A stretch of DNA of 64,000 nucleotides. It comes from Candidatus Doudnabacteria bacterium. Lineage in GTDB: Bacteria; Patescibacteriota; Doudnabacteria; UBA920; O2-02-FULL-48-8. Below, one piece after another: positions 1 to 37,902 of this stretch (the stretch's first letter is position 1; the number at the start of each line of letters is the position of its first letter). The stretch is from assembly GCA_016182875.1 (NCBI GenBank), contig JACPFQ010000004.1, positions 183,556 through 247,555 of the forward strand, in the 5' to 3' direction. The notes beneath the pieces were generated by a model. The model made no database searches, had not been told where the DNA came from, and saw nothing but the letters and a program-made list of their open reading frames with translations. Both the position numbers and the translations under genes were made by a program.

Positions 1-2
1 TG

Positions 3-1073
3 TATGAAAAAGTCGTCGCCACACTTGCGACGACTTTCGTTCGGAGCGAGTCGCTGGCGCGTATTCTAGCGCTGGCATTCGAGTCGGGCAAGAACGTGCT
101 CCTCTGGGGACCAGGAGGACACGGGAAGTCGGAGATGGTTCAGGCGGCGCTCGCATGCGTCGCCGAAGAAGCGAACATTTTCGTCCAGTCCTTTGGCGAG
201 GGCATGGACGAGGCGACGCTTTGGGGTGGGTTGGACTTTGCCGCGCTGGAACGTGATAAGCGCCTAGTCTATCACCCCGAGAACAGCTTCCTCAACCGGC
301 CGTACGCCGTGTTCGAGGAAATGTTCGACGCGCCGGCCTCCGTGCTCTTGGGGTTGAAAGACACCCTGACGGCGAGGAAGCTCCGGAAGGGTTCTCAGGT
401 TTTTGCAATGAAGACCAACGTGATCATCGCGATCACGAACAAGAACCCCGACGAGTTGTCGGACATTGGTCCGGCAGCGGCCGCGCTCGTCGAGCGGTTT
501 CCGCTTCAGCTCAAGGTGGATTGGCCGTCTTATAAGTCGGCCGACTACCTGGAGTTATTCCATAAGGTCGCGCCTCGGTTGACGGGCGCTGATCTCAACG
601 GAACAACCGGCGTTCTGGCCGAGGTTATGGCCAAGGCGTCGGAGGGCGGCGAGGTCGTCTCACCGCGTACCGCGGTGCACGCGCTGGGGATCGTCAAAAC
701 CGCGGCCGCGCTGCGCGGCTCGAGCAAGGTCGAGAAATCTGATTTGCTCGACTTGACGTTTCTGCCCGGGATGGAGGCTTTCGCGGCCAACCTCCGGGCG
801 GAATTGGACGCGGCCTACGAGCGATCGCAGGCCGAAGGACGGTTAGTGGAGGCGGAGCGCAAGTTCCAGTCCCTGCTGGCCACGTTCAATGAGGCCGGCG
901 GATCGCCGGTCAAGCTGCTGCAGGTCGCGAAACGTCTGCGCAGTTTTGAGGACGAGGTAGCCGGTCTGAAAGTGACCGACAATCTCGCTGACCGGCGGAA
1001 AAAGTTGCGCGAGGTTACAGCCGAGCGCGCTGGAGCCGCCCAGCAGGCGGCATTCGACAATACCCGCATCTAG
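3..1073 (+). CDS. MoxR-like AAA+ ATPase, 5' end truncated by window edge
   Basis: Frame open from nt 3 with no stop; Walker A-like GPGGHGKS; GC-rich; followed by a vWA-domain gene, the classic MoxR-vWA pairing. Confidence 0.7.
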   Translation, partial: YEKVVATLATTFVRSESLARILALAFESGKNVLLWGPGGHGKSEMVQAALACVAEEANIFVQSFGEGMDEATLWGGLDFAALERDKRLVYHPENSFLNRPYAVFEEMFDAPASVLLGLKDTLTARKLRKGSQVFAMKTNVIIAITNKNPDELSDIGPAAAALVERFPLQLKVDWPSYKSADYLELFHKVAPRLTGADLNGTTGVLAEVMAKASEGGEVVSPRTAVHALGIVKTAAALRGSSKVEKSDLLDLTFLPGMEAFAANLRAELDAAYERSQAEGRLVEAERKFQSLLATFNEAGGSPVKLLQVAKRLRSFEDEVAGLKVTDNLADRRKKLREVTAERAGAAQQAAFDNTRI

Positions 1074-1090
1074 GCGGGAGGAGGCGTACG

Positions 1091-1744
1091 ATGTCGTACT
1101 CGTTTCGGACGTCGCCGCCTCCCACCTATCTTCCGCCGCAAGCGGAGGAGATGCGGGAAGCGGCCAGTAAGGTCGGCCTCAAGTCTTTTAGTCGGGATTT
1201 AGTGGCTGACCTCTGTAACCTGGCGGCTGGTGGGCAAGTAACTCCACCGTCAGGCTACCGCGACACGGTGCGTAGCCGTGTCGAGGAAACGCTCCCACCT
1301 AGGGATGCGAGTGGTCTCTGGTCTATTCCCGCCCGAACGGGTGGGAAGAAGTTCGGAACCATTCGTAGCAAAGACCGCCGCGAGGTGGTCGAAGTCCTGA
1401 CCGAGGAACAGATGAGGTACCACCGCAATGTCTGCGATTTCTTGCAGACGGTGGACCTTCAAAAATTCCCCGGCAATAGTCCGCTGGAGCAGGCGATGAG
1501 TTTGCTCAAATTGTTGTCGAAACAGCAGGGCGGACAGGGCGGCGGTGAAGCTGGGGAACCCCTCCCCATCTTTGCCGAAAATGAAAGACCAGAGGGGACG
1601 GCTGAAGCCCTCCATGATGTCATGGATCAGGTGGATTCGCTCTCCGAGGAAGAGCAGGACATGCTTGATCCCTCCGGCGCGAACCACCCGGTGATCCAGG
1701 ACTCACCGGAGGGCGACGGTCAGCGGACCGGGCACCATCTCCCG
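1091..1744 (+). CDS. Hypothetical protein, probably the N-terminal segment of the downstream vWA protein split by a +1 frameshift
   Basis: GGAGG RBS 5-10 nt before ATG 1091; this frame stays open to 2071 but its translation after ~1745 looks like off-frame GC-rich noise; the vWA frame opens at 1695. Confidence 0.35.
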
Positions 1745-1748
1745 CAAA

Positions 1749-2438
1749 TTGGATCAATTCACCAAGATGCAGGTTCGTCGCCAGTGTCTGGTGGAACCGG
1801 ATCCCACTGGCGAAGAAGTTCGCCAGCGTCCGATCCGGCACTTGGGAGAACTGTCTCGGGTGGCCAAACAGGAATGGGCGACGCGCCAGCAAGCGCCGAC
1901 CTACTTTTTGTACAAAGCCATCTCGGGGCAGCTCCCTGTGCGCGAGCGCGTGACGAGGGTGGAGCGCAAGCAGGCAATCTTCATCCTCGTCGATGGATCC
2001 GGCTCGATGTCGGGCAAGAAGCACTGGAAGGCAACTGGGGTCGTGATGAACCGGTTGAAGTCCGTGCTTGATGGAGACTCGGAAGTTTGGTTGTCGGTTT
2101 TTGACACCAAACTAACCAAAGTCTTCCATGCCACCAACCCGGTGGAGGCCCGCGAACTGATCAAGAAGTTCGCCGCGGGCAACTTCACCGGGGGTGGCAC
2201 TGACATCGCGGCCGCGACTAAGGCCGCGCATGACTATGTTGAGGACCAGATCCAAAAGGGTGCGGCATTATGGCGCCCGGAGGTTGTGGTCCTCACGGAT
2301 GAAGATACTTCCGTGGCCAGTCTCCGCAAGGAGATGATCCCGGGCACGCGTGTGCACGGGTTTGCCATGGAAGTGAAGAACCCCTCGCTCGTCGCGTTCG
2401 CGAAGAGCACGGGCGGGGTCGGCATGGATCAGTTTTAG
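1749..2438 (+). CDS. von Willebrand factor A (vWA) domain protein
   Basis: MIDAS motif ILVDGSGSMSG...TDG-like; TTG or downstream ATG start; partner of the upstream AAA+ ATPase. Confidence 0.7.
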   Translation: MDQFTKMQVRRQCLVEPDPTGEEVRQRPIRHLGELSRVAKQEWATRQQAPTYFLYKAISGQLPVRERVTRVERKQAIFILVDGSGSMSGKKHWKATGVVMNRLKSVLDGDSEVWLSVFDTKLTKVFHATNPVEARELIKKFAAGNFTGGGTDIAAATKAAHDYVEDQIQKGAALWRPEVVVLTDEDTSVASLRKEMIPGTRVHGFAMEVKNPSLVAFAKSTGGVGMDQF

Positions 2439-2878
2439 GAAGGAGACTGAAATGATCCGTGGTCCGCCGAAAATAACAAAGCTTTACCGGTTTTTGCTCA
2501 AAGCTCCTGCGGGAGAAACCGGTCGTGGTTACTCACGTACAAGCCCAACTCTTCGTACCAGGTAAAAGGTAATAAGCGAAGAGAGCTGACATCTCCACTG
2601 TCCCGGAGTCGGCGTTGTCGATCAATAGAAATTCGATCGACGCGTGGTTACGGCTCAGGGAGTGGCGGCCCCAATCAACCGCCGAACTTTACGCGAGTTT
2701 CTGCTTGCAGCGTAAAGAACGAGGAGTAAAATTCTCCTCTAAAGCAGGCACTTGGATTAGGAGAGAATTGGACCGCACATCCAGTTTTCTCCCTTCCTCC
2801 TAAGGTCATGAATCACGTATCACGCAACACGTATCATGGCTTTGGATGGGAGAGAATTCCAAATTGGAGGAGTTAAAC

Positions 2879-3112
2879 ATGGCGAGAGAAGTGGATTTGG
2901 ATGAACTTTTGCTGTCGCCGCGGGCCGTATTCGGATGGCTAGCCAAGGTCCGGGAATCGGCAGTCGCGCTGGAAGGTGTGAATCCGCAGTTGATTCCGGA
3001 TGAACGCGCCCGGATCAATGACGACGGCACGCTCACTATCTTCGTGGAAATCCCGGGGATAATAACCATAAGCATGGAGGTGCCGCGCGGCGATTGGGCG
3101 TATCGCCAGTGA
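2879..3112 (+). CDS. hypothetical small protein
   Basis: ORF with AGGAG RBS before ATG 2879; no recognisable motifs. Confidence 0.4.
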   Translation: MAREVDLDELLLSPRAVFGWLAKVRESAVALEGVNPQLIPDERARINDDGTLTIFVEIPGIITISMEVPRGDWAYRQ

Positions 3113-3263
3113 TAGTTAATGGTTTAGGGTTATCCATTAGATAAAACCCTTACTCTTTCTTATTTTTCTTTCCGGATCTGCCGGGGATACTCTCTCCTTC
3201 AGCCCCAGTTTTTTATAAAACCGGAGCTGAATCCCCGTCAGTTTTGGGAAGGAAATTTGAATT

Positions 3264-4311: not shown

Positions 4312-4818
4312 ATGAAAACCGTTATTGTCATCGTCATTGTCATGGTTGCTTTTTTGGGCTTAGGCTTTTTATTGTTTAAGCAATCAAACAAGCCTGAATC
4401 GCCCAAGGATTTGCCAGGCCAAGCCATTGAACTGCAGGGAGCACAACATATCCCAGAAGGTTCCACTGACCATCCACCATATAATTCCAATCCGCCGACT
4501 TCGGGCTGGCACTGGCCGCAGCCAGCAAGCTGGGGCGCTTATAATGAATCCCAGCCGGACGAGCGTCTGATTCATAATTTGGAACATGGCGGCATTTGGA
4601 TTTCATATAAGTCCAGTTTGGATTCCACAACCGTTGAGCTGCTTAAGGACTTTGCCCGCCGATATCGCAAAGTTATTGTCGCTCCCCGGGATGCCAATGA
4701 TAGCCTGATTGCTGTTGTCGCGTGGGGGAGATTGATGAAGTTGGATGGTTTTGACGAAAACCAAATCCTGAAGTTTATCGAAGCGTATTATGACGAGGGC
4801 CCAGAGAAAGCTCCATAG
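4312..4818 (+). CDS. membrane-anchored DUF3105-like protein
   Basis: N-terminal TM; conserved HNLEHGGIWISY block. Confidence 0.55.
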   Translation: MKTVIVIVIVMVAFLGLGFLLFKQSNKPESPKDLPGQAIELQGAQHIPEGSTDHPPYNSNPPTSGWHWPQPASWGAYNESQPDERLIHNLEHGGIWISYKSSLDSTTVELLKDFARRYRKVIVAPRDANDSLIAVVAWGRLMKLDGFDENQILKFIEAYYDEGPEKAP

Positions 4819-4822
4819 CAAT

Positions 4823-6067
4823 ATGCCAAGCAAAATGAATCCATTTAAATCCGCCATGCAGCAGCTGACTGAAGCGGCGGCGGTCATGAAGCTGGATAAG
4901 GAAATCCTATCAGCACTTCGCGAACCAGACCGCACCATAAACGTCAGCCTGCCCGTTCGCATGGATGATGGCCGAATAAAAGTTTTTCAAGGCTACAGAA
5001 TCCAGTACAATGACGCCCGCGGGCCTTATAAAGGCGGAATGCGCTACCATCCGCAGGTAAATATGGATGAAATAAAAGCCTTGGGTTTTTTGCAGACCAT
5101 CAAAAACGCCGTGGTCAATTTGTTTTATGGCGGCGCCAAAGGCGGGATTAGCGTTGACCCCAAAAAATTGTCCAAAGCCGAGCTTGAGCGGCTGTCTCGA
5201 ATGTTCATCCAAAGAATCGCTAAGGACATTGGTCCAGAAACTGACGTTCCGGCCCCGGACGTCAATACCGACTCGGAAATTATGGGCTGGATGGTTGACG
5301 AGTATTCAAAAATCGTGGGTAAATTTACGCCGGCCGCGATAACCGGAAAACCCTTGAGCCTCGGCGGCTCGCAAGGCCGGGAAGAGGCGACTGGCTACGG
5401 CGGCATGGTCGTTTTGAAGCAAATTCTAAAAGAGCAAAAAATCAAAAAGCTGCCGACAGTCGCCGTTCAGGGATTTGGCAATGTTGGCTACTTTTTTGCC
5501 TTATTCGCCCAGTCTTCCAACTTCAAAGTCGTCGCGGTTTCCGACTCGAAGGGCGGAATTTACTCGGCTAAAGGACTGGATGTCAGGAAGGTTCACGAGT
5601 GGAAGAAGCAAATGGGGCAGCTGAAGGGCTACCCGGGAAGCACCACCCTTTCGAACGAGCAGCTGCTTGAGCTGCCGGTTGACGTTTTGGTTCCAGCGGC
5701 CTTGGAAAATCAAATTCACAAAGACAACGCGAAAAAAATTCAGGCCAGGATTATCGTGGAAATGGGCAACGGTCCGGTAACCGCGGAAGCCGACCCGATC
5801 TTGATAAAAAGAAAAATTTTGGTCGTCCCGGACGTTTTGGCCAACTCCGGAGGCGTGGCCACTTCTTATCTTGAATGGTCCCAAAATCGAAGCGGCGTTT
5901 ACTGGTCGGAGCAGGAGGTATTGCAGAAGCTAGAAGCATACATGATTGCCGCAACCCGCAACGTTTTGTCGACTGTTCGCGAATACAAGGTCGCCGATTT
6001 GCGCACTGCGGCCTTTATTTTGGCGCTTAGGCGCATTGCTGATGCAATGCAGGCCAGAGGGCTGTAG
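4823..6067 (+). CDS. gdhA: glutamate dehydrogenase (Glu/Leu/Phe/Val dehydrogenase family)
   Basis: GGxxxGGAKGG-type motifs (FYGGAKGGISVDP), QGFGNVG NAD(P)-binding Rossmann motif. Confidence 0.9.
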   Translation: MPSKMNPFKSAMQQLTEAAAVMKLDKEILSALREPDRTINVSLPVRMDDGRIKVFQGYRIQYNDARGPYKGGMRYHPQVNMDEIKALGFLQTIKNAVVNLFYGGAKGGISVDPKKLSKAELERLSRMFIQRIAKDIGPETDVPAPDVNTDSEIMGWMVDEYSKIVGKFTPAAITGKPLSLGGSQGREEATGYGGMVVLKQILKEQKIKKLPTVAVQGFGNVGYFFALFAQSSNFKVVAVSDSKGGIYSAKGLDVRKVHEWKKQMGQLKGYPGSTTLSNEQLLELPVDVLVPAALENQIHKDNAKKIQARIIVEMGNGPVTAEADPILIKRKILVVPDVLANSGGVATSYLEWSQNRSGVYWSEQEVLQKLEAYMIAATRNVLSTVREYKVADLRTAAFILALRRIADAMQARGL

Positions 6068-6093
6068 TATAATTATTACCAGAAAGGAAAAAC

Positions 6094-6489
6094 ATGAAAT
6101 TTAAATTATTGTTAGTCTTGGCAGTTTTGGTCTTCGGAGCTGCCGCGTGCAATAAAAAAACGGAAAATCCCGCTGCCTCACTGCCTCCCATTAAAGCAAC
6201 CCCAACAGAAGTTGCTCAACAGGAAGTTATCGTTTCGGAAAATGGTTTTTCGCCTTCAGAGATCACAATCAAGAAAGGCAGTGTGGTCACTTTTATAAAT
6301 AAAAGCAGCAAAGCGGTCTGGCCAGCCTCGGATCCCCACCCCACGCACACTGATTATTCCGGTTTTGATCCAAAAAAAGCTGTTGAATCCGGAGCCAGCT
6401 GGAGCTTTACCTTCGATCAGATTGGCGAATGGGGGTATCATGACCACTTATCGCCATTTCGGAAAGGAACGATCAAAGTTACGGATTAA
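6094..6489 (+). CDS. cupredoxin-like lipoprotein
   Basis: Signal peptide plus lipobox AAC; plastocyanin-like segment GSVVTFINKSS...H..H. Confidence 0.5.
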   Translation: MKFKLLLVLAVLVFGAAACNKKTENPAASLPPIKATPTEVAQQEVIVSENGFSPSEITIKKGSVVTFINKSSKAVWPASDPHPTHTDYSGFDPKKAVESGASWSFTFDQIGEWGYHDHLSPFRKGTIKVTD

Positions 6490-11314: not shown

Positions 11315-11345
11315 AAAAACAGACCCGGGGCAGGAGAACCGGGCC
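11313..11345 (-). terminator. rho-independent terminator for GC-rich ORF 11371..11691
   Basis: cccgg...ccggg hairpin followed by T7 on minus strand. Confidence 0.5.
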
Positions 11346-11370
11346 AGGAAGAAGCCGTGAAGCCGCACGC

Positions 11371-11691
11371 TTAGGCGGCGGCTGCGCGCTCTGCGGCGTA
11401 GTAGGCGCGACGGGCCTCGCGCGGATCAGGAAGCTGAATGCCTGCCTCAAACGTCCCGGCTTCCAGGACACCAGGAAGGGCACGAAGCAGGACCAAATCT
11501 TCTTCTCCACGGAAGTCCGGGAACTCGATGTTCAGCGAAAGCGGATTCTGGTCGCTGGCCTCAGCGGGAAGAATGTCCATACGGCCTGCTCGATCGCGGG
11601 CATCTCCACGGACTCCGATGTAGCACTGACGATAGTACTCCACAGTTTTCCTATCAGTGCAGCGCATGTAAACGAGCTGGCGCCAAGCCAT
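11371..11691 (-). CDS. GC-rich orphan hypothetical protein (106 aa)
   Basis: AGGAGG RBS 5 nt before ATG 11691; own terminator; ~62% GC versus ~43% flanks. Confidence 0.45.
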   Translation of the reverse strand: MAWRQLVYMRCTDRKTVEYYRQCYIGVRGDARDRAGRMDILPAEASDQNPLSLNIEFPDFRGEEDLVLLRALPGVLEAGTFEAGIQLPDPREARRAYYAAERAAAA

Positions 11692-11836
11692 GGGATCCTC
11701 CTTCTCATGCAAAACGAGCCACTCTAAAAGAGTGACTCAGATGTTCGGAAACGGGTCGATATATAATTGCTGTTTGTTTTTGCTGAAGTAAGAAGCATTA
11801 AACGCTCCTTACTTTAAGTATATACCCCTTATATTA

Positions 11837-19359: not shown

Positions 19360-19854
19360 ATGACATTTCAACATTTGTTCGCGATCTTGGGCGGCGAAGA
19401 AGGGTTTGGATGGTTGACGGCCATCCAGAGACCGGACATGGAAGACGGAACGGTTCATTTTGAGTGGTCGACAGATTGGCCGGTCAAGATTGTTCGCGTC
19501 CGTTCCCTCACAAACGATTCGCTCAACCTTCCGAAAGGAAAGAAGTTCAACCTTTTCATCTACGGCTCAACCGTGGCGAAGCGAAGGCCGTGGGGAGTCG
19601 TGCTCGTCAAAGAATTGCCCGTCAATGACGACGGCACGAACGTGTTAAAGGTATTGCAGGCGGAAGTGAAACGACAGCGTTCGCTTTGTGCACTTTGTGC
19701 TGGCGACCAGGAGTTCCGGCTGCATCAAATCGCTGTGGGGGTTTGCCCCGAGAGGTTCGTGCCGGAGCATCTACTTTATCAGCACACCATTGTCTACTTA
19801 CCCCGTAACAAGCGAGTGCGGCTCGACACTCTGCTCGACGAAGCTGCAACTTAG
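19360..19854 (+). CDS. GC-rich orphan hypothetical protein (164 aa)
   Basis: GGAGGG RBS, own terminator; ~60% GC island between uvrC and uvrA. Confidence 0.5.
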   Translation: MTFQHLFAILGGEEGFGWLTAIQRPDMEDGTVHFEWSTDWPVKIVRVRSLTNDSLNLPKGKKFNLFIYGSTVAKRRPWGVVLVKELPVNDDGTNVLKVLQAEVKRQRSLCALCAGDQEFRLHQIAVGVCPERFVPEHLLYQHTIVYLPRNKRVRLDTLLDEAAT

Positions 19855-19867
19855 CTTCGACAAACGC

Positions 19868-23544: not shown

Positions 23545-24807
23545 ATGAGAAAAATTCAAATAGGTGTTATGGGATCAATGGCTGATCTAAACTATTCCAA
23601 AGCTACTGAAAAGCTAGCAGAAGAAGTCGGGTTTTGGATTGCTAAAAATGGAGCGGCACTGATTTTTGGGGCGGAAAAAGATGGCGATAGTCTTTCAACA
23701 GCCGCTTGTCGCGGTGCTAAAAAAACTAAAGGCATAACGATCGGTGTAACCTACGCTAAAGGATTGGATGTTTTTGAAAAAAATAATATTGATGTGGTAA
23801 TTGCAACGGGCTTAGAAAGAGGTGGTGGCCGAGAATTGCCACTTGTCTTAAGTTGCGATGCAGTTATTACTTTAAATGGCGGATCAGGAACTCTTACAGA
23901 AGTTGCAATTGCATATCAAGCTAATATTCCCATAGTTGTCCTAAAAGCAACCGGTGGGTGGAGCGGCAGGTTAGCCGGGCAGTATTTAGATGATAGAAAA
24001 CGTATCAAAGCGGAAATTGCTAACAGTCCCAAAGAGGCTGTTCTAAAAGCGTTAGATTTAATTGCACTAAAGCAAGCAAAACAAAAAGATATTTTGGTAC
24101 TGACTGCTGTCCACGGGGACGAATCGATTGGCGTCAGAGCTATGAGAATAATTGATAAGCGAATTCCTGATAACCGTTTTGCTTGGACAATCGCTAACGA
24201 AAAAGCTTTATCTAAAAATCAAAGATTTGTAGATGCCGACCTGAATCGAGCTGCACCAGGCAATAAAAATTCCAAGCAGTATGAAGTTCGCAGAGCATCG
24301 GAACTGTTGAAGTTAGCAAATAATTATCGCTATGTGTTTGATATCCACGGAACAAGTGCCAACTCGGGGATCTTTACGATTGTCACAAATCCGACCCTGG
24401 AAAATTTAGCGTTGGCTTCAATTCTCCCCATAGATAATATTGTTATTTGGATTTCCCAACCCCGAAAAAAATCAGGGCCAATTACCCAGTTTGTTAAGTG
24501 CGGATTGGAAATTGAATGCGGCTTAAAAAATTCACCAAAAACCTTGAAGCAACTAGCTAAAATTTTGGAGGAGATAAACGGTAAGAGTATCGATTATTCG
24601 AATCTTAACCTGAAAGGAAAAAACTTATTCCAAGTTTATGGGAAGCTGATGAAGTCTGAAATTAATAACAAAAATTATAAAAAACTTAAGGACTTCAAAA
24701 AGACTAAAATCAATACAGAGATTTTCTTCCCTCTTTTAGTAGGTCGGTACCTAGGATTAGCCTGTTATAAAATGCGGAAATTGAACCATCGCGACCACCC
24801 TTTATAA
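23545..24807 (+). CDS. fusion protein: N-terminal LOG/SLOG-like Rossmann domain (TIGR00725-like) + C-terminal AstE/AspA (succinylglutamate desuccinylase/aspartoacylase) zinc deacylase domain
   Basis: N-terminus GVMGS...IATGLERGGGRE...NGGSGTLTE; C-terminus HGDESIG, DADLNRAAPG, DIHGT motifs; low GC like backbone. Confidence 0.55.
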   Translation: MRKIQIGVMGSMADLNYSKATEKLAEEVGFWIAKNGAALIFGAEKDGDSLSTAACRGAKKTKGITIGVTYAKGLDVFEKNNIDVVIATGLERGGGRELPLVLSCDAVITLNGGSGTLTEVAIAYQANIPIVVLKATGGWSGRLAGQYLDDRKRIKAEIANSPKEAVLKALDLIALKQAKQKDILVLTAVHGDESIGVRAMRIIDKRIPDNRFAWTIANEKALSKNQRFVDADLNRAAPGNKNSKQYEVRRASELLKLANNYRYVFDIHGTSANSGIFTIVTNPTLENLALASILPIDNIVIWISQPRKKSGPITQFVKCGLEIECGLKNSPKTLKQLAKILEEINGKSIDYSNLNLKGKNLFQVYGKLMKSEINNKNYKKLKDFKKTKINTEIFFPLLVGRYLGLACYKMRKLNHRDHPL

Positions 24808-24847
24808 GAAGAGATTGGTTGTGTTTGGCTTGGTTACTTAACACCTT

Positions 24848-24873
24848 CAATCCCTTCTTAGAAGGGATTTTTT
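24848..24873 (+). terminator. rho-independent terminator
   Basis: aatcccttc tta gaagggatt + T-run. Confidence 0.6.
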
Positions 24874-24907
24874 ATTCTAAGAAATTTATCAAGATTGAGG
24901 AGGAATT

Positions 24908-25618
24908 ATGAAGCGACTCACAGCAGTGTCGACGTTCGTGGATGATGTCCTGCTTAATGAACAGGAACAAGTGCTCGAAGTTCGCGTAGGCGGCCCGGCA
25001 GAATTCTTCCGGCGGGTGTTTGAAAAAACATCACAACCAGTTCAACTGATTACAGGCCGCCGAATGCAAGTCAGGATCAAGGTAGTTCTAGGCATGCCGC
25101 AAGTTGGGAGGGTTGTTGATGCTGGAGACATGCAATCACTACCCCAAATCAACTCACCGAACTTGCTGCTTTCCAGCTTGGCTCGGGAATGGAATGTTCT
25201 GCCCCTGAAGGATTATCTCGGCAGAGTGTTTCTGGATGTCCAAGGTTTCGTTAGGAATCCCAGCGCTGGATTTGGTCGGAAGCAAGTGTGGAGTGAAATC
25301 GAACTAATCGCTTCGAACTTGTTTTGCATCAAGGCCACCGAACTAGAACTTAGATTTCTGCCGCCGTCGTTCGTGCAAGATCAGATCGAGAACCGTTGTC
25401 TTCTGTTGACCAAGGGTCCGCAAGGGTCAGAGATCTTTTTCCGCGGACAGGCCCAGGTCTACGAACCCGAAGAATCACTTAATCCTCCAGATACCTTGGG
25501 GGCCGGTGATACATACCTGGCGACGTTCACCAAGGAATTCATCCAGCACGAAGACTGGCGAGCCGCAGGTTTGGCCGCCAGTCAAGCAGCGTTCCGTTTC
25601 CTCAAAGCGAAAGGATGA
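24908..25618 (+). CDS. PfkB/ribokinase-family carbohydrate or nucleoside kinase (short form)
   Basis: DTLGAGDTYLATF PfkB signature-2-like motif; GGAGG RBS; GC-rich. Confidence 0.55.
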   Translation: MKRLTAVSTFVDDVLLNEQEQVLEVRVGGPAEFFRRVFEKTSQPVQLITGRRMQVRIKVVLGMPQVGRVVDAGDMQSLPQINSPNLLLSSLAREWNVLPLKDYLGRVFLDVQGFVRNPSAGFGRKQVWSEIELIASNLFCIKATELELRFLPPSFVQDQIENRCLLLTKGPQGSEIFFRGQAQVYEPEESLNPPDTLGAGDTYLATFTKEFIQHEDWRAAGLAASQAAFRFLKAKG

Positions 25619-26151
25619 CAGACATGAAAATCAGAGATCTGACAGCAGCCGATCTTATCGGCGTCCGACAGATTTACCGAGAAGCGTTTGCCGGATTTCC
25701 TTGGTTCGAAACGGTGACAGACGCTGAAATCGATTCGAGGTTTAACAGTGTGATGTCAGGGTTGGTCGCGGTCCAGGACAATTCGGTCGTTGGGGCGACC
25801 TGGTGGGAGGTTATAACGATCGAAAAACTCAGACAAGAACGCGGCGAGGAACTGGTCCGATTCGCCAACACGTTTCGAGAAGAACATCTCAAATATGTCT
25901 GGGTAAGGGAAACCATAGTCTTACCGTCGCATCAAGGTCAAGGAATCGGCTTGATGCTCAAACAGGACTCCATCAAGCGCCTTCACGAGGTCTACAAGCC
26001 AGTAATGATTCTGACACGGATGAGAGATGACAACCTGCCTATCATTCGGATTGCAGAACGATGTGGATTCGCTAGGACCGGAATCAAGGTCCCCGATAGC
26101 CAAGTGCTTGTCAATCATGAGTACTGGTATTACAAGGAGGTAAGTCGATGA
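25615..26151 (+). CDS. GNAT-family N-acetyltransferase
   Basis: HQGQGIG acetyl-CoA binding motif; ATGA overlap with upstream gene. Confidence 0.6.
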   Translation: MTDMKIRDLTAADLIGVRQIYREAFAGFPWFETVTDAEIDSRFNSVMSGLVAVQDNSVVGATWWEVITIEKLRQERGEELVRFANTFREEHLKYVWVRETIVLPSHQGQGIGLMLKQDSIKRLHEVYKPVMILTRMRDDNLPIIRIAERCGFARTGIKVPDSQVLVNHEYWYYKEVSR

Positions 26152-27005
26152 AGCCTTTCGTCATTTCTGAAGACGCTGAAACCCTTCTGCATAAGTGGGC
26201 GGAAGTCCGGGGATTCCAGTTACCGAGTCGAGCATTCTTCGCAGGGCTGCTGGATGAGATGGTGGGAATGCTTGAGAAAATCTTTAGCGAGGTGATTCTT
26301 GCTGAAGAGGCAGCCATCAGCAGCCAGCTTGTCCAATGGGTACATGCAAGCGGATTACCAGCGGTTTCGATGGACGGCGTCTATTTTCAATCCGAACACA
26401 CGATTCAAGTCAACCGCGCTGTAGACCAGTTCGGCAACGATATTGGTTTGTTCCCCAGGCCTGGCGCACCATCGCTTTGTGAGCAGTGTCAAGTCATCAA
26501 GGACCGAGAACTGACTGAGATAGTACTCGTCGACGACGTAGTTTTCAGTGGCCACCAAATCGTCTTGGTAATTGAGGGACTTGCCGATCTGAACGTGCGC
26601 GTAGTCAAAGTGCTTGCCGGGATTTCAATTGGGATGGGAGAAACTCTCCTCGCCGAAAAAGGCGTGGACTACGTATCCGTCTACCCTATCCCTGAAGTTG
26701 TAGACGAAATCTGTCAGCGAGACTTTCTGCCTGGAACACCTCGTTGCGGTCGCTACTTGGCAGGCAGTAAGAATACTGGGCTACCGTATTTACTGCCGTT
26801 CGGCAATCCAGGCAAGTGGGCATCTATTCCAGAGAATTGGCAGTTGCCATTTTCTCAATTCTGTATTGATCGCGCGATTCGGGTTTTCGAAGCGATCGAA
26901 AAAGAGTCTGGGAGGGTGGTTCATTGTTTGGATCTGGATAGAAAAGTATTTTCGTTGCCCAAGGACGGTACACGCTTCGTGGATGCACTGCGGCGTTTGC
27001 TCTGA
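26148..27005 (+). CDS. phosphoribosyltransferase (PRTase type I)-like domain protein
   Basis: PRPP-binding-like motif EIVLVDDVVFSGHQI; ATGA overlap with GNAT gene. Confidence 0.45.
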   Translation: MKPFVISEDAETLLHKWAEVRGFQLPSRAFFAGLLDEMVGMLEKIFSEVILAEEAAISSQLVQWVHASGLPAVSMDGVYFQSEHTIQVNRAVDQFGNDIGLFPRPGAPSLCEQCQVIKDRELTEIVLVDDVVFSGHQIVLVIEGLADLNVRVVKVLAGISIGMGETLLAEKGVDYVSVYPIPEVVDEICQRDFLPGTPRCGRYLAGSKNTGLPYLLPFGNPGKWASIPENWQLPFSQFCIDRAIRVFEAIEKESGRVVHCLDLDRKVFSLPKDGTRFVDALRRLL

Positions 27006-27221
27006 TGGGTGAGGCCATGATTCGGCAACGAGTCCTCTGGCCCTTTTTATTTGCTTAGGCCTTGACCCCGTTAGAAATAAGACGCCAACGGTGTCTGCCG
27101 ATACGCAAGTATTGGATTTCTAACGGGGTTGACATTTTAGTTTTTCTGGTATCTCAAATGAGCGTACCATAAAAGTATACAGAAATTCGTGGTTTAGGTT
27201 CCCAAAAAGGAGGGTAAAGCC

Positions 27222-27923
27222 GTGCCACGAGAGGATCGCATGTTCGGTGATTTCTACGTTGCGCCAGCCAGGAGCGTTCGGCGCGTGACCATTCGAGTGC
27301 TTGTCGGCAGTTTCTGGCTTCTGCTGTTCGTTGCATTTGGTTATAGTCGGGCAGTGGCGATTGACAGTCTGCCAAGGGTGGACACGATGATGAAGATCGT
27401 GCTGCCATCCGCGCCCCCGCCCCCGCCACCAGCTCCGGTCCCGCCCAAGAATCAGCCGGAGCGGCCAGTGGTCAGCAAGCCGGACTTTCCGGTAGAGCCG
27501 CCGACCGGCATTCCGCCCGAGCCGCCGTTCGATGTTCCAAGCGTTCGGAACATTCCCGGTGTCATCGACGGAGTTCCTCCCGGCGAGATTCCGGACTTCG
27601 TTCCTCCGCCACCGCCTCCGCCGCCCAAGCCGGTAGAACCCGTACCGGTCGGAGGCAACATCAGGCCGCCACAGCGGCTTGAGCACGTTCCTCCTGAGTA
27701 CCCGGCTATCGCTCGGACGGCACGGGTGCAGGGAATCGTGATCATCCAAGCCACGATCAACGAGACGGGTCGGGTAGTAGAGGTCGAGGTCCTTCGGTCG
27801 ATCCCGCTTCTTGATCAGGCAGCACTTGACGCGGTACGGCAATGGCGCTATACACCAACGCTACTCAACGGTAAACCGGTGCCCGTCATCACGACGGTCA
27901 CGGTGCAGTTCACCCTGCAGTAG
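27222..27923 (+). CDS. TonB C-terminal domain protein (proline-rich periplasmic spanner + TonB_C)
   Basis: N-terminal TM, PPPPPP linker, C-terminus ...VQGIVIIQATINETGRV...RYTPTLLNGKPV; GTG start after AAGGAGGG RBS; ~62% GC. Confidence 0.7.
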   Translation: MPREDRMFGDFYVAPARSVRRVTIRVLVGSFWLLLFVAFGYSRAVAIDSLPRVDTMMKIVLPSAPPPPPPAPVPPKNQPERPVVSKPDFPVEPPTGIPPEPPFDVPSVRNIPGVIDGVPPGEIPDFVPPPPPPPPKPVEPVPVGGNIRPPQRLEHVPPEYPAIARTARVQGIVIIQATINETGRVVEVEVLRSIPLLDQAALDAVRQWRYTPTLLNGKPVPVITTVTVQFTLQ

Positions 27924-28032
27924 TTTGGTGGACAGTCGTTAAAATTAAATAGGGGTGTTTCCGGCCGGCAGTGCCGACAAACAAAAAACAAACGGCACGC
28001 AAGTAGCCTGGGTAGGAAAACCCCACGACGCC

Positions 28033-28068
28033 CAGCCAGGACTTTCACAAGCCCTGGCCGGTTTTTTT
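28033..28068 (+). terminator. rho-independent terminator after TonB-like gene
   Basis: gccagg...cctggc hairpin + T7. Confidence 0.55.
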
Positions 28069-28146
28069 ATTTCTCAAGCCACCTCTCTGTCCGGTCGACG
28101 ACCGGACATCTCTCCTGGGAGGAGAGAAATAATTTGAAAGTTACAC

Positions 28147-28191
28147 TGGCACTTGACAGGGTTGAGTGCTAGGGTTAAAATATTGGCACTC
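28147..28191. promoter_or_regulatory. CIRCE-like HrcA operator (TGGCACTT-N9-GAGTGCTAG followed by a third half-site TGGCACTC)
   Basis: Resembles the TTAGCACTC-N9-GAGTGCTAA consensus; directly upstream of hrcA. Confidence 0.45.
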
Positions 28192-28211
28192 CTAATGTTT
28201 AAGTGCTAACT

Positions 28212-28943
28212 ATGGATACTCGCAAACAGAGGATTTTAGCAGCAATCGTCAAAGAATACTCCGAAACGGCAAATCCTGTGGGCTCCAAGGAACTGGTAGA
28301 CAGGTATAATTTCACGGAAAGCCCTGCCACCATCCGCAACGAAATGGCTGATTTGGAGAAAGATGGCTATATCTTTCAGCCGCATAAATCCGCCGGCCGC
28401 GTCCCCACAGACAAAGGCTATCGGTTTTTCGTCAACGAATTAATGCGCCGGTTTGAATTATCAGAAAAAGAACGCCGGATGCTTAAACACGAACTCCTGA
28501 AATTGCAGGTTCAACAGGAACAGCTGGGACGTTCCATCTCGAATTTACTGTCCCAGGTTTCAGGCCAAGCCGCGTTCGCGCTTCTGCCCAATCAATCCTC
28601 GGCCACCGGGCTTTCGCAAATTATAGGCGAGCCGGAGTTTGCGGATTCCAAGCAAATGAAGCAAGTAGCCCAGTTGCTTGAGCATATTGATGAGCACGCC
28701 AGCAAATTAATTAAAAAATCAGAGATAACAGCAGAAGCGTTTATCGGGAGCGAAGCCAAGTTCCCGGTGCCCAAGAATTTAAGTCTGGTGGTTTCCAATG
28801 TCAAAATGAAAGACGGCAAGAAAGGCGTCATCGGCATCATCGGCCCCAAGCGCATGGCCTATGCCAAGAATTTGTCCATCATTAATTATTTAGCGAAATT
28901 AATAAGCGGCGCTGCAGTGATAATTTTGATAATTAAAATATAA
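28212..28943 (+). CDS. hrcA: heat-inducible transcriptional repressor HrcA (short form)
   Basis: N-terminal winged-HTH region (RQRxIL..IV..Y..T..PVGSK.L) and operon with grpE-dnaK. Confidence 0.8.
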   Translation: MDTRKQRILAAIVKEYSETANPVGSKELVDRYNFTESPATIRNEMADLEKDGYIFQPHKSAGRVPTDKGYRFFVNELMRRFELSEKERRMLKHELLKLQVQQEQLGRSISNLLSQVSGQAAFALLPNQSSATGLSQIIGEPEFADSKQMKQVAQLLEHIDEHASKLIKKSEITAEAFIGSEAKFPVPKNLSLVVSNVKMKDGKKGVIGIIGPKRMAYAKNLSIINYLAKLISGAAVIILIIKI

Positions 28944-28988
28944 AAATTATGAGCAGACTGCCAATTAATATTGTTGGATTACAGTAAT

Positions 28989-29046
28989 TGTCATCCTGAG
29001 CGAAGCGAAGGATCTCATGAGATTCTTCACTGCGTTCAGAATGACA
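28989..29046. repeat. palindromic element (tgtcatcctgagcgaagcgaaggatctc / gagattc...gcgttcagaatgaca)
   Basis: Variant of the GCGAAGCGAAG palindromic family; supplies the spurious N-terminal codons of the grpE ORF. Confidence 0.55.
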
Positions 29047-34639: not shown

Positions 34640-34692
34640 ATCAATTCACTCTAGAAAAAAACCCGCAAAACGCAGGGTCATGCGGGGTAACT

Positions 34693-35355
34693 TTATTGTT
34701 TCAGAACATCGCGCATTGAATACCATCCGGTCTTGCCGGCTACCCAATTTGCTGCCAACAGCGCTCCTTGTGCGAAGGCTTTACGATCCTTGGCGGTGTG
34801 GGTCAGCTCGATGGTGTCCGACGGACTGTCGAACCCCACCGTGTGGATGCCGGAGATTGAGCCAGCTCGCGTGAATGAGACGTCGATGGCGCGATTGAAG
34901 CCAGCCTGTGTCATGGTGTTGCGAAGCATCAAGGCGGTGCCTGAGGGCGCGTCTCGCTTGGCCGCGTGGTGCGCTTCATATATCCATGCGCCGTATTGCG
35001 GCTGAGCCTGGAGCAGCCTCGCGGCCTCTGCCACGACCATCTGAAAGAGGTTGACGCCAATGGAGAAGTTCGGGGCAGCCACTACGCCCAGCCCGGCATG
35101 TTCTGCCTCGGTGCGCAGTCGGCTTTCATGCTCGGACCATCCCGTCGTCCCGATGACGACGTGCAGTTTCCGTTCCGCGTACTGTCCAAAATTGGCAATC
35201 AGCGCTTCAGCAGTGGAGAAGTCGATTGCCACGTCCGCCCGGTTCCACTCATTCCGTTCTCGGTTGACGCGGCCTACTACTTCGAAACCCTGTTCCGTAG
35301 CCAGCTGATCTATTAGCCGGCCCATCTTGCCGTATCCGACAATCAGGATTTTCAT
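34693..35355 (-). CDS. dapB: 4-hydroxy-tetrahydrodipicolinate reductase
   Basis: MKILIVGYGKMG N-terminal Rossmann, DapB C-terminal domain; GC-rich. Confidence 0.85.
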   Translation of the reverse strand: MKILIVGYGKMGRLIDQLATEQGFEVVGRVNRERNEWNRADVAIDFSTAEALIANFGQYAERKLHVVIGTTGWSEHESRLRTEAEHAGLGVVAAPNFSIGVNLFQMVVAEAARLLQAQPQYGAWIYEAHHAAKRDAPSGTALMLRNTMTQAGFNRAIDVSFTRAGSISGIHTVGFDSPSDTIELTHTAKDRKAFAQGALLAANWVAGKTGWYSMRDVLKQ

Positions 35356-36197
35356 CTTTTGCTCCAGAAAAACGGGGCGCACAGAGGCGGCCGATACACG
35401 GGCTCCATCAGACCCCGCATGCTCATTACCACTTTCACCGGGATGGGGTTGGTCTCCACGAACAGCGCCTGAACGAGCGGGAACAGTTGGTAGTTGATTC
35501 GCCGCGCCGTCGCCCAGTTGCCGTCGAGCGCCGCATACACCATGTCCACGGTTTCGCGAGGCATGGGGTTTGAGATCACGGAGATCACCCCGTGTCCGCC
35601 GATGCTGATGAGCGGCAGCGTGAGCGCGTCGTCGCCGGACAGATACGTCAGGCGGTCGCCGCAGAGCTGGATGTCAGTCATCATCTGATCGAGCTTGCCG
35701 GTCGCTTCCTTGACGCCCACGATGTACGGATGTTCCGACAGCTCGGCCAGGGTCGGCGGCAGCAGGTCCACGCCCGTACGCGACGGGATATTGTACACGA
35801 TCACGGGCAGGCCGACATCGGCAATTGCGCGGAAATGGGCCAGGAGGCCAGCCTGGGTAGGCCGATTGTAGTACGGTGTCACCACCAGGCAGCCGTCAGC
35901 ACCCGCCTCCTTCGCGTGCTGGGTCAGGCTGACTGCCTCGGCCGTGGCGTTTGAGCCAGTGCCGGCGATGACCGGCACGCGACCCGCGGCTTCTTCGATT
36001 ACGATTTCGGTAACCCGCCGCTGCTCGTCGTGAGAAAGCGTCGGGCTTTCGCCGGTCGTCCCGCAAGGGACGAGGAAATCGATACCCTGCGCGATCTGCC
36101 AGTTCACCATGCGCCGCAGGACTGTCTCATCCACCGAAAGATCCGGGTCGAACGGCGTGACCATGGCGGTCCCGCAACCCTTAAATGTGCGCTTCAT
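35352..36197 (-). CDS. dapA: 4-hydroxy-tetrahydrodipicolinate synthase
   Basis: DapA family (GTTGES, active-site Lys region); GC-rich; start set at MKRTFKG. Confidence 0.85.
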   Translation of the reverse strand: MKRTFKGCGTAMVTPFDPDLSVDETVLRRMVNWQIAQGIDFLVPCGTTGESPTLSHDEQRRVTEIVIEEAAGRVPVIAGTGSNATAEAVSLTQHAKEAGADGCLVVTPYYNRPTQAGLLAHFRAIADVGLPVIVYNIPSRTGVDLLPPTLAELSEHPYIVGVKEATGKLDQMMTDIQLCGDRLTYLSGDDALTLPLISIGGHGVISVISNPMPRETVDMVYAALDGNWATARRINYQLFPLVQALFVETNPIPVKVVMSMRGLMEPVYRPPLCAPFFWSKR

Positions 36198-36604
36198 GTT
36201 CTTCCTCCGATTATGGCTCTGCTCTTCGGCAGCGGAGCTGGTGTCCAGAACTCTCAAGCACAAGCTTTATTACTACTTGCGCCGAAGAGACTTTACACCA
36301 AGAAAGCCGCCTTCTTTCGAAGGCGGCTTTAGGTGATTTGATTAGGCTAGAACTGATTAATCAAGACTCACCAAAAAGCTACCTTCAGAGGAAGGCTTCT
36401 TACCGTACTTTTTGCTTGAGAAAGTCTGATTAGTCATCGTTAGCTAATACTAAATTAAAATTCCGTTGTTGTCAATTTGGTGTGGCTTTACAATCACGCT
36501 CGAACGTATTTTAGCAAAAATTTGTAAAAAATGACAGAGAGCCGCGCTATGCGCGGCACAATAGCTGTAATGCGCTCGGGCGCGGCGGAATCCCCCTAAA
36601 TTCC

Positions 36605-36648
36605 AAAAATAAAAACCAGCAACATTTTCTCCTTTCGAGTGTTGCTGG
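36605..36648 (-). terminator. rho-independent terminator for the minus-strand operon 37902->36684
   Basis: ccagcaaca-N15-tgttgctgg hairpin followed on the minus strand by T-run. Confidence 0.6.
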
Positions 36649-36683
36649 CCTTGTGGGAGTTGATTAGGAACGAAACCTCTTCG

Positions 36684-37226
36684 CTATTTACTCGCCTCGG
36701 GCATCCCGAAACGAAGCGCCGGACGGACATAGTTTAGGTTGTCGTCGAGACAGTGCCAGTGCTCACCTAGGGAGCCCCGGTACACACCGAGGTATGGAAC
36801 GAACAGGCGACCGTTGTAGTGCTCGACGACCCAGCGCCATCCGAAGACAGCCTTTCCCAGGAAGTATCTCTCGTAAAATTCTTTTCCCCGAGGCCGAATG
36901 ATTTGGAGTTCGAAGAGACCGGCACAGCCGGCGAGGAGGTCGCCTGCCTTGAGCGCTTCGTACACGGCATGGCCGGTAACCCCAGCGTCAGTGTCTTGGC
37001 CTGGCGCAAGCCAAAGTTCGAACCGGGCTGTATAGAACTTTTTCGGACTGGTTTCTTCCAACTCTCGATGCACCCTCTTTCGTACCCAGCTTGGATAGGC
37101 TGGTCGGAGTACTGGCCTGCGGGATTCAATCACAAGCTCGGCACGATCCTCGCAACTCACCTTGATTTCGACTTCTCGTCGGTGAGGATAGTCGTAATCT
37201 GGAGAAAACGTTGGGTCGATATTCAT
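36684..37226 (-). CDS. GC-rich hypothetical protein (180 aa)
   Basis: ORF, coding-like composition, no recognisable motifs. Confidence 0.45.
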   Translation of the reverse strand: MNIDPTFSPDYDYPHRREVEIKVSCEDRAELVIESRRPVLRPAYPSWVRKRVHRELEETSPKKFYTARFELWLAPGQDTDAGVTGHAVYEALKAGDLLAGCAGLFELQIIRPRGKEFYERYFLGKAVFGWRWVVEHYNGRLFVPYLGVYRGSLGEHWHCLDDNLNYVRPALRFGMPEASK

Positions 37227-37248
37227 GATAATCCTCCTGTCGAAGAGC

Positions 37249-37902
37249 TTACTCGTCCCGCGAGTCCTTGTTGCGTCCGGCTTCCTCTCCGGGCGCGAAG
37301 AGATCGAGAAGCCCGCGCCCGCGAGCGCTTGCTTCCATCACTCTACGCTCCAGCCTTGCGTCCATTTTGTCCAGAGAAGTGGACGAGTTTGCAACTGGTG
37401 CAAGATCATGCGTTTCGAGCACCTCGCATCTTTCAAGCCAGACTAGCGCCGCATTTCGAGGGTCACTCACCCTCGTTAAATCATGTCGCGCTATAATCTT
37501 GGCTGCGTTCCGTTCCTCTCGTGGGAGCGGATAGGCTGTAGAGAGTTCCAGTGGTCGACCACCCGACTCGCAGCGAACGAACCATCCTCCTTCGTGTTTT
37601 CTCAACTCCGTTTTTTTCGTTAACGAGCGATCCTGCCGCTTGCCAACGGACCTGATTGTGTACATCCGTTTAGGCCAGTCTTCCAGACTTTTTCGGAGAT
37701 CCTGCACCTCCTGTTCTGTTGCGCTGAAGCGAAGAGTACTGTCCTCAATGGGTGGCTTTTCCGTCCCCATTTGATCGAGTATGTTCTGAGCCAGAACGAG
37801 GACTTCGTAGAAGGCAAATGGCTCTAGCCGGAGTATGTATTTTCTCCTCGTTGGCTTAAAAACGCCGACCGCGTGGTCGGTGTTTCGTTTGCGATTTGGC
37901 AA
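37249..37902 (-). CDS. GC-rich hypothetical protein (217 aa)
   Basis: ORF; first gene of two-gene operon with consensus promoter upstream. Confidence 0.45.
   Translation of the reverse strand: MPNRKRNTDHAVGVFKPTRRKYILRLEPFAFYEVLVLAQNILDQMGTEKPPIEDSTLRFSATEQEVQDLRKSLEDWPKRMYTIRSVGKRQDRSLTKKTELRKHEGGWFVRCESGGRPLELSTAYPLPREERNAAKIIARHDLTRVSDPRNAALVWLERCEVLETHDLAPVANSSTSLDKMDARLERRVMEASARGRGLLDLFAPGEEAGRNKDSRDE

Follow-up and report, generated by a model that had tools for sequence, protein, structure and literature searches.

Horizontally acquired islands are common in Patescibacteria. In a published survey (PMC12455944), most of them were exchanged within the phylum, a minority came from other phyla, and most are not recent. 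Soil Doudnabacteria, Saccharibacteria and Parcubacteria also gained the cyo (cytochrome bo3) operon laterally (PMC8407418). Here we analyzed a 64,000-nt stretch (the window) of contig JACPFQ010000004.1 from Candidatus Doudnabacteria, a lineage within the Candidate Phyla Radiation (CPR, or Patescibacteria), in which a first-pass annotation had noticed a series of GC-rich islands carrying, among others, MoxR-vWA, dapA-dapB and tonB genes. These cassettes are likely to be independent horizontal acquisitions from different sources into a CPR chromosome.

Like the islands in the survey, those of the window are short acquired regions in a streamlined CPR genome, with exchange within the CPR for MoxR-vWA and dapAB and a source outside it for tonB. 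They differ in their size (0.3-3.7 kb), in having no detectable mobility genes, and in a sharp split between genes with and without Shine-Dalgarno (SD) sites; the passages of PMC12455944 consulted do not mention such a split as a mark of islands. The cyo acquisition (PMC8407418) concerns the same lineage, probably the same habitat and a gene source outside the CPR, and was read as an adaptation to soil, whereas the cargo of the window consists of tonB, dapAB, MoxR-vWA and orphan open reading frames (ORFans). Gene transfer into the CPR is a clear case here but not unprecedented, and it is of the same kind as in the published surveys (PMC12455944, PMC8407418). The novelty lies in the specific cargo, notably a TonB that stands alone and is kept by selection, and in how cleanly the translation signals divide.

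GC-rich cassettes in a Doudnabacteria backbone

By its protein sequences the window is assigned to a Candidatus Doudnabacteria chromosome. Its DnaK is 82-89% identical to that of Candidatus Doudnabacteria metagenome-assembled genomes (MAGs), and NCBI labels its DapA (P0121) and MoxR (P0241) as Doudnabacteria proteins encoded on a contig of 327,498 bp, which supports the CPR cell presumed by the first-pass annotation. Matching reads came from runs SRR121134xx, and these read sets together with the published study suggest a soil origin of the organism. The backbone consists of housekeeping genes, including those for GDH, EF-P, SSB, S6, YchF, PGM, TrpRS, RNase J, UvrC, UvrA, HrcA-GrpE-Hsp20-DnaK-DnaJ, TopA, DprA, Pth, Der and HisRS, and three tRNAs.

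The GC content was 48.2% for the whole window and 46.3% for the backbone with the listed segments masked, the latter exceeding the earlier estimate of about 43%. When segments were scored against size-matched backbone chunks, clear outliers were found at 1-3150 (58.3%, z 4.8), 11315-11715 (60.1%, z 3.0), 27200-27930 (61.7%, z 3.8), 34690-36270 (60.6%, z 4.6), 52990-53700 (59.1%, z 3.2) and 55440-56115 (63.3%, z 4.3). The rise was moderate at 19330-19990 (54.0%, z 1.9) and 36680-37910 (54.5%, z 2.2). The pfkB-GNAT-PRTase segment (24895-27005; 50.8%, z 1.4) was no GC outlier, and its dinucleotide signature was atypical (delta* of 164 versus a null of 53±19). Thus, the proposed island range of 55-62% held approximately for eight of nine segments (54-63%) and failed for this operon. 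The GC content at third codon positions (GC3) of MoxR, vWA, dapA and the target gene of a diversity-generating retroelement (DGR) was 0.74-0.84, well beyond the backbone range of 0.34-0.66. Across the islands, GC3 spread from 0.56 to 0.84, and their states of amelioration are unequal.

The islands are set apart sharply by their translation signals. With curated starts, 11 of the 14 island genes have an SD core within -18..-3, compared with 1 of the 42 backbone genes (Fisher p = 2.8e-8), confirming the strong GGAGG-type ribosome-binding sites (RBSs) attributed to the islands. When GGAGG sites located 4-12 nt ahead of an ORF start (ORFs of 60 aa or more) were sought in an unbiased scan, 11 genuine starts emerged, at 1091, 2879, 19360, 24908, 26148, 27222, 53247 and 55454 on the plus strand and at 11691, 36197 and 37226 on the minus strand. 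All of these lie inside islands, and the remaining matches were five sites internal to backbone genes. The private terminators also attributed to most islands were found for tonB and dapB, one each, and terminator-like sites showed no overall enrichment.

Of the 42 backbone genes, 10 have a TATAAT-like box (-10 box) 4-13 nt before the start; the 14 island genes have none, and the frequency at random ATGs is 3.5%. This distribution suggests that leaderless mRNAs are widespread among backbone genes. Backbone starts with such a box and no SD site include 4312 and 43159 and, on the minus strand, 7058, 12990, 43144 and 60700. Flanking genes in a Liptonbacteria contig (L091) look similar, with a TATAAT-like box near the ATG and no SD site. 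Higher GC combined with a strong SD site also marks the MoxR-vWA module in Kaiserbacteria (L097) and SD-led genes in two related Doudnabacteria loci (L005 and L007). It might even be that the acquired genes are translated separately, as an SD-dependent class next to native genes that are leaderless. We regard this as quite unlikely, as we do the symbiosis reading of TonB given below.

Related Doudnabacteria loci (L005-L012 and L044, ±10 kb) were compared with the window. They keep hrcA-grpE-dnaK-DUF3467-x-dnaJ, and several also keep uvrA. SLOG-AstE, pfkB, GNAT, PRTase, TonB, dapA, dapB and the ORFans are absent from all of them over this range, and island genes are missing at the syntenic positions of eight related Doudnabacteria, indicating that the islands are real accessory insertions. 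The uvrA|hrcA and post-dnaJ slots of the relatives are occupied by other genes that are for the most part ORFans, SD-led and GC-richer, with proC in L005; the two positions are hot spots of insertion. We propose that a backbone of about 46% GC, largely SD-less or leaderless, is broken at variable slots (uvrC|uvrA, uvrA|hrcA, dnaJ|tRNA-Lys, PGM|trpS, dprA|pth and others), each of which would hold one short cassette of horizontally gained accessory genes. The cassettes would keep donor-type GC and strong SD sites, while older ones (tonB at synonymous sites, pfkB-GNAT-PRTase) would be partly ameliorated.

If the GC-rich genes were native, their composition would reflect amino-acid content or expression level. 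This would fit TonB, whose surplus of GC falls mainly on the first and second codon positions (20.6% proline) and whose GC3 of 0.67 is barely above the top of the backbone range, and the pfkB-GNAT-PRTase operon, which is ordinary in GC. It is hard to reconcile with the GC3 of 0.74-0.84 in MoxR, vWA, dapA and the DGR target, with the absence of the genes from syntenic positions in eight relatives, with RBS types sharply unlike those of the backbone, and with a tonB that nests within diderm sequences and belongs to a family reported missing from the CPR (PMC6744442). We therefore consider a native origin highly improbable.

No integrase domain was detected in any scanned ORF of the window, and no att-like repeats were found around 34-43.5 kb. 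Only the dap island adjoins a tRNA gene (tRNA-Lys, 38046-38122), and it was rejected as a classical integrative genomic island, having neither integrase nor att-like repeats. Because these were not found, the cassettes may have entered by DNA uptake followed by recombination; DprA is encoded in the window.

The first-pass annotation had asked for assembly chimerism to be excluded, and the junctions were therefore compared with separate per-run Logan assemblies, in which they were reproduced by runs SRR12113420, -422, -424, -383, -384, -385 and -430. Contigs from four runs (L001-L004) equal window positions 23371-29018 at 100% identity, including both tonB edges, and contigs from two runs (L182 and L183) span both edges of the MoxR-vWA island at 100% identity. 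To the left of MoxR-vWA, about 485 nt before the window start, GC climbs to 0.70 from values below 0.5 (0.36-0.47 in the 400 nt ahead of this point), and the right flank of the island runs on into DUF3105-GDH-EF-P-SSB. Two contigs (L088 and L090) span dapA-dapB-dnaJ and hence the dnaJ-side edge of the dapBA island. Two others equal the window at 100% identity over 19190-22912 (L179; the ORFan o19360 and uvrA with short flanks) and 34736-37549 (L089). These matches exclude junction chimerism where it could be tested, that is, at both edges for MoxR-vWA and TonB and at the dnaJ-side edge for dapBA, with o19360 reproduced together with its flanks.

The same comparison uncovered two defects of the window record. 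A 68-nt deletion after 1737 frameshifts vWA; the segment is present in L180, L182 and L183, where the intact protein has 470 aa (L180) or 471 aa (L182 and L183). A true pseudogene of the population was ruled out for vWA, the gene being intact in the Logan assemblies. In dapA, 118 nt are missing between 35372 and 35373, which takes away the final 16 codons, the stop codon and a hairpin, all of which are present in L088, L089 and L090. Both deletions represent local consensus errors or else minority variants, and their absence from the per-run assemblies indicates that the MAG consensus is imperfect. Both lie within GC-rich islands, as might be expected if fragments of co-occurring high-GC bacteria had been joined into a CPR contig by assembly or binning. 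The contig with the closest tonB relative (L085, 2.2 kb) is binned as 'Uhrbacteria', so binning labels can be loose. Nevertheless, the per-run assemblies repeat the junctions of island 1, tonB, dapB-dnaJ and o19360-uvrA at 100% identity, L085 independently has tonB directly upstream of a Doudnabacteria hrcA control region, and the best matches of MoxR-vWA and dapAB are in the CPR rather than in high-GC bacteria. The chimera explanation is already largely refuted, and we consider it extremely improbable.

An apparently orphan tonB gene

The canonical Ton system of diderms consists of TonB, ExbB and ExbD together with TonB-dependent outer-membrane transporters. The window encodes a full-length TonB of 233 aa (27222..27923, plus strand) with a GTG start and the RBS AAGGAGG at 27208-27214 (GGAGG core from 27209). 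As in the canonical system, the protein combines a membrane anchor, a proline-rich spacer and C-terminal YP and WRY-x-P motifs. An Arg-rich segment at the N-terminus is followed by a hydrophobic stretch, VLVGSFWLLLFVAFGY, that is predicted to be a transmembrane anchor, and by a linker with 20.6% Pro and PPPPPP runs. The TonB_C domain (Pfam PF03544, 9e-22) covers profile positions 2-79 of 79, the protein scores 56.4 bits against TIGR01352 (cut-off 27.1), and the C-terminal domain matches the solved structures 2K9K, 6I97, 1XX3, 1U07 and 2GSK (PDB).

Unlike its canonical counterparts, the gene appears to be an orphan in a lineage reported to have no TonB, ExbB, ExbD or outer membrane. No MotA_ExbB or ExbD Pfam match was obtained in the scanned window ORFs, exbB and exbD gave no tblastn match in the 64-kb window and about 300 kb of related loci, and no TonB-dependent outer-membrane receptor was found in the window. 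Its status as an anomaly in a CPR cell, which the first-pass annotation had stressed, agrees with the reported absence of the TonB, ExbB and ExbD families from the CPR (PMC6744442). The Ser-x3-His of the transmembrane helix is also missing, with R-V-L-V-G in the window and R-S-L-V-V in L085 where most relatives have S-x3-H (e.g. LSILVH). This motif is not invariant in the donor clade, since P0072 and P0053 are without it, P0072 despite adjacent exbBD.

The relatives of the gene point to diderms. P0060 and P0072 match its C-terminal domain at 76-77% identity, and their loci have the order SecDF-BacA-DUF502-H+-PPase-tonB-exbB-exbD-exbD at 66% GC, beside genes for CarboxypepD_reg and outer-membrane proteins (OMP); the closest tonB contexts were in GCA_041643275.1 and an ENA contig. 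In a neighbour-joining (NJ) tree of this domain, the window TonB pairs with P0002 and nests within the P0060/P0072 clade. Eighty relatives from soil metagenomes are at most 69% identical and all have 54-72% GC, with exbB present in 30 of 48 such loci with at least 1.5 kb downstream. A scan of JGI metagenomes for further tonB genes in a CPR context returned only high-GC relatives of at most 69% identity. One relative is named, a Vicinamibacterales bacterium (60% identity), and this together with the gene architecture suggests a donor of Acidobacteriota type.

Conservation extends to the RBS, the GTG start and an N-terminal 'PR(D/E)xFGD' motif. The translation starts read aaaggagggtaaagccGTG in the window, gcaggagggtaagagcgGTG in L086 and aaaggagggagccaagccGTG in L085, which indicates that tonB arrived with its own translation start. 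P0002 is encoded on L085 (labeled Uhrbacteria), the 3' end of which is 97.7% identical to window 28054-28182, the hrcA upstream region; L085 therefore holds a second CPR copy of tonB at the same locus. Between the two copies, the C-terminal domain has diverged with a dS of 0.39, a dN of 0.04 and a dN/dS of 0.10, indicating that tonB is maintained by selection and is not decaying; the N-terminal half is saturated. GC1 and GC3 of tonB are 0.71 and 0.67, and donor-type genes have a GC3 of 0.87-0.88. The high GC content is largely due to the 20.6% proline, which, together with a GC3 close to the backbone maximum, fits an older transfer that has become partly ameliorated. We propose that the complete cassette (RBS, GTG start, gene and terminator) came from a high-GC soil diderm with a tonB-exbB-exbD-exbD operon.

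The cassette is bounded by structured elements. Between the PRTase-like gene and tonB is a Y-shaped stem-loop of 72 nt with a 17-bp outer stem (27062..27132, plus strand; minimum free energy -39.1 kcal/mol, z -7.8). The window contains one copy of it, Rfam has no match, and it might serve to terminate the operon ahead of it or act in regulation. An intrinsic terminator follows tonB (28032..28068, plus strand; hairpin 28032-28061 and U7, -15 kcal/mol, z -2.9). The native hrcA upstream region starts at about 28054 and has a promoter-like TTGACA-17-TAAAAT at 28153-28181. CIRCE-like inverted repeats, CTGGCACTT-N9-GAGTGCTAG and TTGGCACTC-N9-AAGTGCTAA, are situated around this promoter (28146-28210), the first overlapping the TTGACA -35 box and the second coming after the -10 box.

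From its domain layout, the orphan TonB is probably a membrane-anchored, outward-facing, proline-rich stalk with a functionally constrained C-terminal domain, whose role would most likely be binding of a beta-strand ligand or of peptidoglycan. Because neither an ExbB-ExbD motor nor an outer membrane is in evidence, the protein is probably no classical energy transducer; unless the rest of the genome supplies a motor, such a function is unlikely. A bolder reading, which we hold to be quite unlikely, is that tonB is a symbiosis factor captured from an Acidobacteriota-like host and selected in at least two Doudnabacteria-like genomes. TonB, carried by its proline-rich stalk on the monoderm surface, would then engage TonB-box proteins of the host, or peptidoglycan, at the attachment site, a proposal that we view with the same strong reserve.

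Sources of the cassettes

Island 1 contains a MoxR-type AAA+ ATPase gene (1..1073, plus strand; Pfam bpMoxR and AAA_5, GC 62%, GC3 0.78), the first 7 nt of which are cut by the window start, the full protein having 359 aa in Logan contigs. It is followed by a CoxE-like vWA gene (1091..2438, plus strand; AGGAGG RBS, Pfam VWA_2 and VWA_CoxE), which the Kaiserbacteria vWA matches in two frames by tblastn. A 77-aa ORFan (2879..3112, plus strand; GGAGG RBS, GC 58%) forms the right end of the island and has no Pfam, PHROG or PADLOC match. An adjacent MoxR-type AAA+ ATPase and CoxE-like vWA, with bpMoxR as the best Pfam match, are common to this pair and to the MoxR-vWA-beta-propeller ternary systems (Pfam PF20030). 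The window pair differs in having two genes plus small ORFans, and no beta-propeller gene stands next to it in the window or L182, nor next to the pair in the Kaiserbacteria loci (L095-L098).

Beyond itself, the MoxR protein has its best matches in an ENA contig with an intact vWA (88% identity), in Kaiserbacteria (78%) and in many Patescibacteria (66-70%). In Kaiserbacteria, the neighbours of MoxR-vWA are murA, mreB, holB, frr and rseP. The module would thus derive from a gene pool circulating among CPR lineages. It is unlikely, although less so than the other alternatives, that island 1 with its small ORFs is what remains of a phage or some other mobile element and not a simple gene transfer. 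Two IMG/VR contigs (about 100 kb, 62-63.5% GC) have adjacent MoxR (53% and 45%) and vWA (49% and 31%) genes, L093 also has a weak match (29% identity, E 3e-7) to a small Kaiserbacteria ORF (u159), and the module has retained 56-62% GC, together with SD sites of its own, in two or more CPR backgrounds that differ in GC. The left flank also has a RelE-like toxin gene. However, there is no integrase, capsid, terminase or other phage hallmark, PHROG matches are marginal, PADLOC matches are nil, and the Kaiserbacteria neighbours are housekeeping genes. A mobile or viral reservoir for the module remains conceivable as one possible source, given the IMG/VR matches. The flanking gene, to the left of island 1, is an 87-aa ORF that is RelE/ParE-like by sequence alone; it occupies 747-1010 of L182, some 1.1-1.3 kb upstream of where the window begins. 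At 54635-55057, a PIN-domain gene runs into the start of pth. The two genes resemble toxin-antitoxin remnants beside islands.

The dap island consists of dapA (35352..36197, minus strand; GGAGG RBS, GC 62%, GC3 0.79, Pfam DHDPS 3e-96) and dapB (34693..35355, minus strand; 220 aa, GC 58%, Pfam DapB_N and DapB_C), with a terminator at 34676-34662. In their intact Logan versions, DapA scores 349.6 bits against the equivalog TIGR00674 (cut-off 206.15) and DapB 144.5 bits against TIGR00036 (cut-off 122). The remaining identities given by the first-pass annotation were likewise supported by Pfam and NCBIfam, from the MoxR-type AAA ATPase and vWA to pfkB-like, GNAT, a weak PRTase, TonB_C, DapB and DapA. 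No asd, dapD/L/F or lysA gene is present in the window. The same dapA-dapB pair, again with no other pathway genes, stands among CPR housekeeping genes on a 238-kb Liptonbacteria contig (L091). DapA is 70-72% identical to a set that includes the Liptonbacteria protein, and 59-63% to NC10 and Acidobacteria sequences. In an NJ tree it belongs to a long-branched group with Liptonbacteria and Pacebacteria, apart from NC10 and Acidobacteria. This pair, too, would come from the gene pool circulating among CPR lineages.

The first-pass annotation had traced all islands to one high-GC donor, possibly the host of an episymbiont. The tonB relatives, all from high-GC (54-72%) soil bacteria with exbBD operons, agree with this, elevated GC and strong SD sites are common to all islands, and host-to-symbiont transfer is plausible for the CPR. 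Only TonB points to high-GC diderms, however. MoxR-vWA is closest to CPR sequences (88%; 78% in Kaiserbacteria; many Patescibacteria) that stand among CPR housekeeping genes, DapA groups with Liptonbacteria and Pacebacteria at 70% versus 59-63% for NC10 and Acidobacteria, GC3 (0.56-0.84) and amelioration states vary among the islands, and no host is known. By the first-pass annotation's own yardstick, best hits of island genes within the CPR, MoxR-vWA and dapAB therefore represent intra-CPR exchange, and the taxonomy of best hits upheld a high-GC diderm source for TonB only. A single host donor is thus very unlikely. Several ORFans and the DGR target make up a third group, distinct from tonB and the CPR-pool cassettes.

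Several points weigh against our preferred reading of independent acquisitions from different sources. The Logan assemblies exclude assembler-specific chimeras, but their read sets are probably from the MAG's own study and are not independent biological samples, and the edges covered belong to four islands (MoxR-vWA, o19360, tonB and dapBA, the last on its dnaJ side). Of a contig that is at least 327 kb long, the search for exbB and exbD covered 64 kb. The donor taxonomy of tonB rests on one named relative (Vicinamibacterales, 60%) and operon architecture. For DapA, the tree was built quickly by NJ from database matches, and the window sequence falls on a long branch. The Liptonbacteria dapA matches the GC of its own genome, whereas the window dapA has a GC3 of 0.79; the immediate source of the window gene was therefore GC-richer. 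Finally, neither mobility genes nor target-site repeats were found.

Other cassettes, neighbouring genes and implications

The remaining cassettes are made up largely of ORFans. A 106-aa ORFan (11371..11691, minus strand; AAGGAGG RBS, GC 60%), located between the PGM and TrpRS genes, has no Pfam or Rfam match. A 164-aa ORFan, o19360 (19360..19854, plus strand; GGAGG RBS, GC 54%, GC3 0.64), lies between uvrC and uvrA, and a 122-aa ORFan (53247..53615, plus strand) has a GGAGG RBS and 59% GC. Next to the dap island are o36684 (36684-37226, minus strand; 180 aa, AGGAGG RBS) and o37249 (37249-37902, minus strand; start uncertain), with 54-56% GC and 144 nt from tRNA-Lys. The ORFans have no paralogues among themselves and no homologues in any fetched locus. 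Structured RNA was considered for 11.3-11.7 kb and 53.0-53.7 kb and rejected, as there was no Rfam match even at E<=1 and both regions hold SD-led ORFans.

The pfkB-GNAT-PRTase operon (24908..27005, plus strand; Pfam, NCBIfam) encodes a pfkB-like kinase (24908-25618), a GNAT protein (25624-26151) and a PRTase-like protein (26148-27005), with an AGGAGG RBS ahead of two of the three genes. Directly upstream is a fusion of SLOG/LOG-like (LDcluster4, TIGR00725) and AstE/aspartoacylase-like domains (23545-24807, GC 39%). The fusion is missing from the relatives, and a stand-alone LDcluster4 gene is found near dapAB in Liptonbacteria L091. MoxR-vWA, the SLOG-AstE/pfkB/GNAT/PRT genes and the ORFans gave no PADLOC match and only marginal PHROG matches.

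The DGR at 55454-58043 is complete. Its target gene (55454..56113, plus strand; AAGGAGG RBS, GC 63%) contains a variable repeat (VR, 55991-56104) and is followed by a template repeat (TR, 56441-56554) and a reverse transcriptase (RT) gene (56967-58043; Pfam RVT_1 8e-25), so that the proposed DGR target stands. The 114-nt TR and VR are 86% identical, and all 16 mismatches are at TR adenines. The target has 62% GC (GC3 0.82) even outside the VR, and the spacers and RT have 42-44% and the TR 55%.

Some neighbouring genes have other compositions. Directly downstream of tRNA-Lys (region 38123-41238) are two large minus-strand ORFans of 40-41% GC (38611-39987 and 40006-41238), which were not found in the related loci searched and may represent a second, AT-rich kind of insertion; they are followed by a gene for a secreted SNase-Excalibur nuclease (41482-42357). 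In the backbone, genes for DUF3105, glutamate dehydrogenase and a cupredoxin-like protein are grouped at 4312-6489. This metabolic content is unusual in a CPR genome and may be linked to the aerobic life of soil Doudnabacteria. At 63100-64000, an XRE-type helix-turn-helix ORF precedes the start of a further ORF, both running off the window end. As a guess, the latter could be a restriction-endonuclease gene, and the two could form a restriction-modification/controller cassette.

The window is a clean and assembly-verified case of tiny cassettes being gained by streamlined CPR genomes, in a few variable slots between conserved operons, with a cargo that would come mostly from the CPR gene pool and, for at least one gene (tonB), from a diderm. 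The two deletions in the deposited MAG mean that 'pseudogenes' in such records need read-level checks. The nearly perfect split between SD-led acquired genes and native genes that are SD-less or leaderless provides a simple, GC-independent marker of recent acquisitions in such genomes, and raises the question of how the SD-led genes are translated in a group whose members often have no anti-SD motif, which is missing in many Parcubacteria (PMC9297842). A TonB under purifying selection in a lineage reported to have neither a Ton system nor an outer membrane is a testable oddity that could point to a host or to a non-canonical role of the TonB C-terminal domain. If it were a symbiosis factor, tonB would name the host and would represent a new, ExbB-ExbD-free use of the TonB C-terminal domain.

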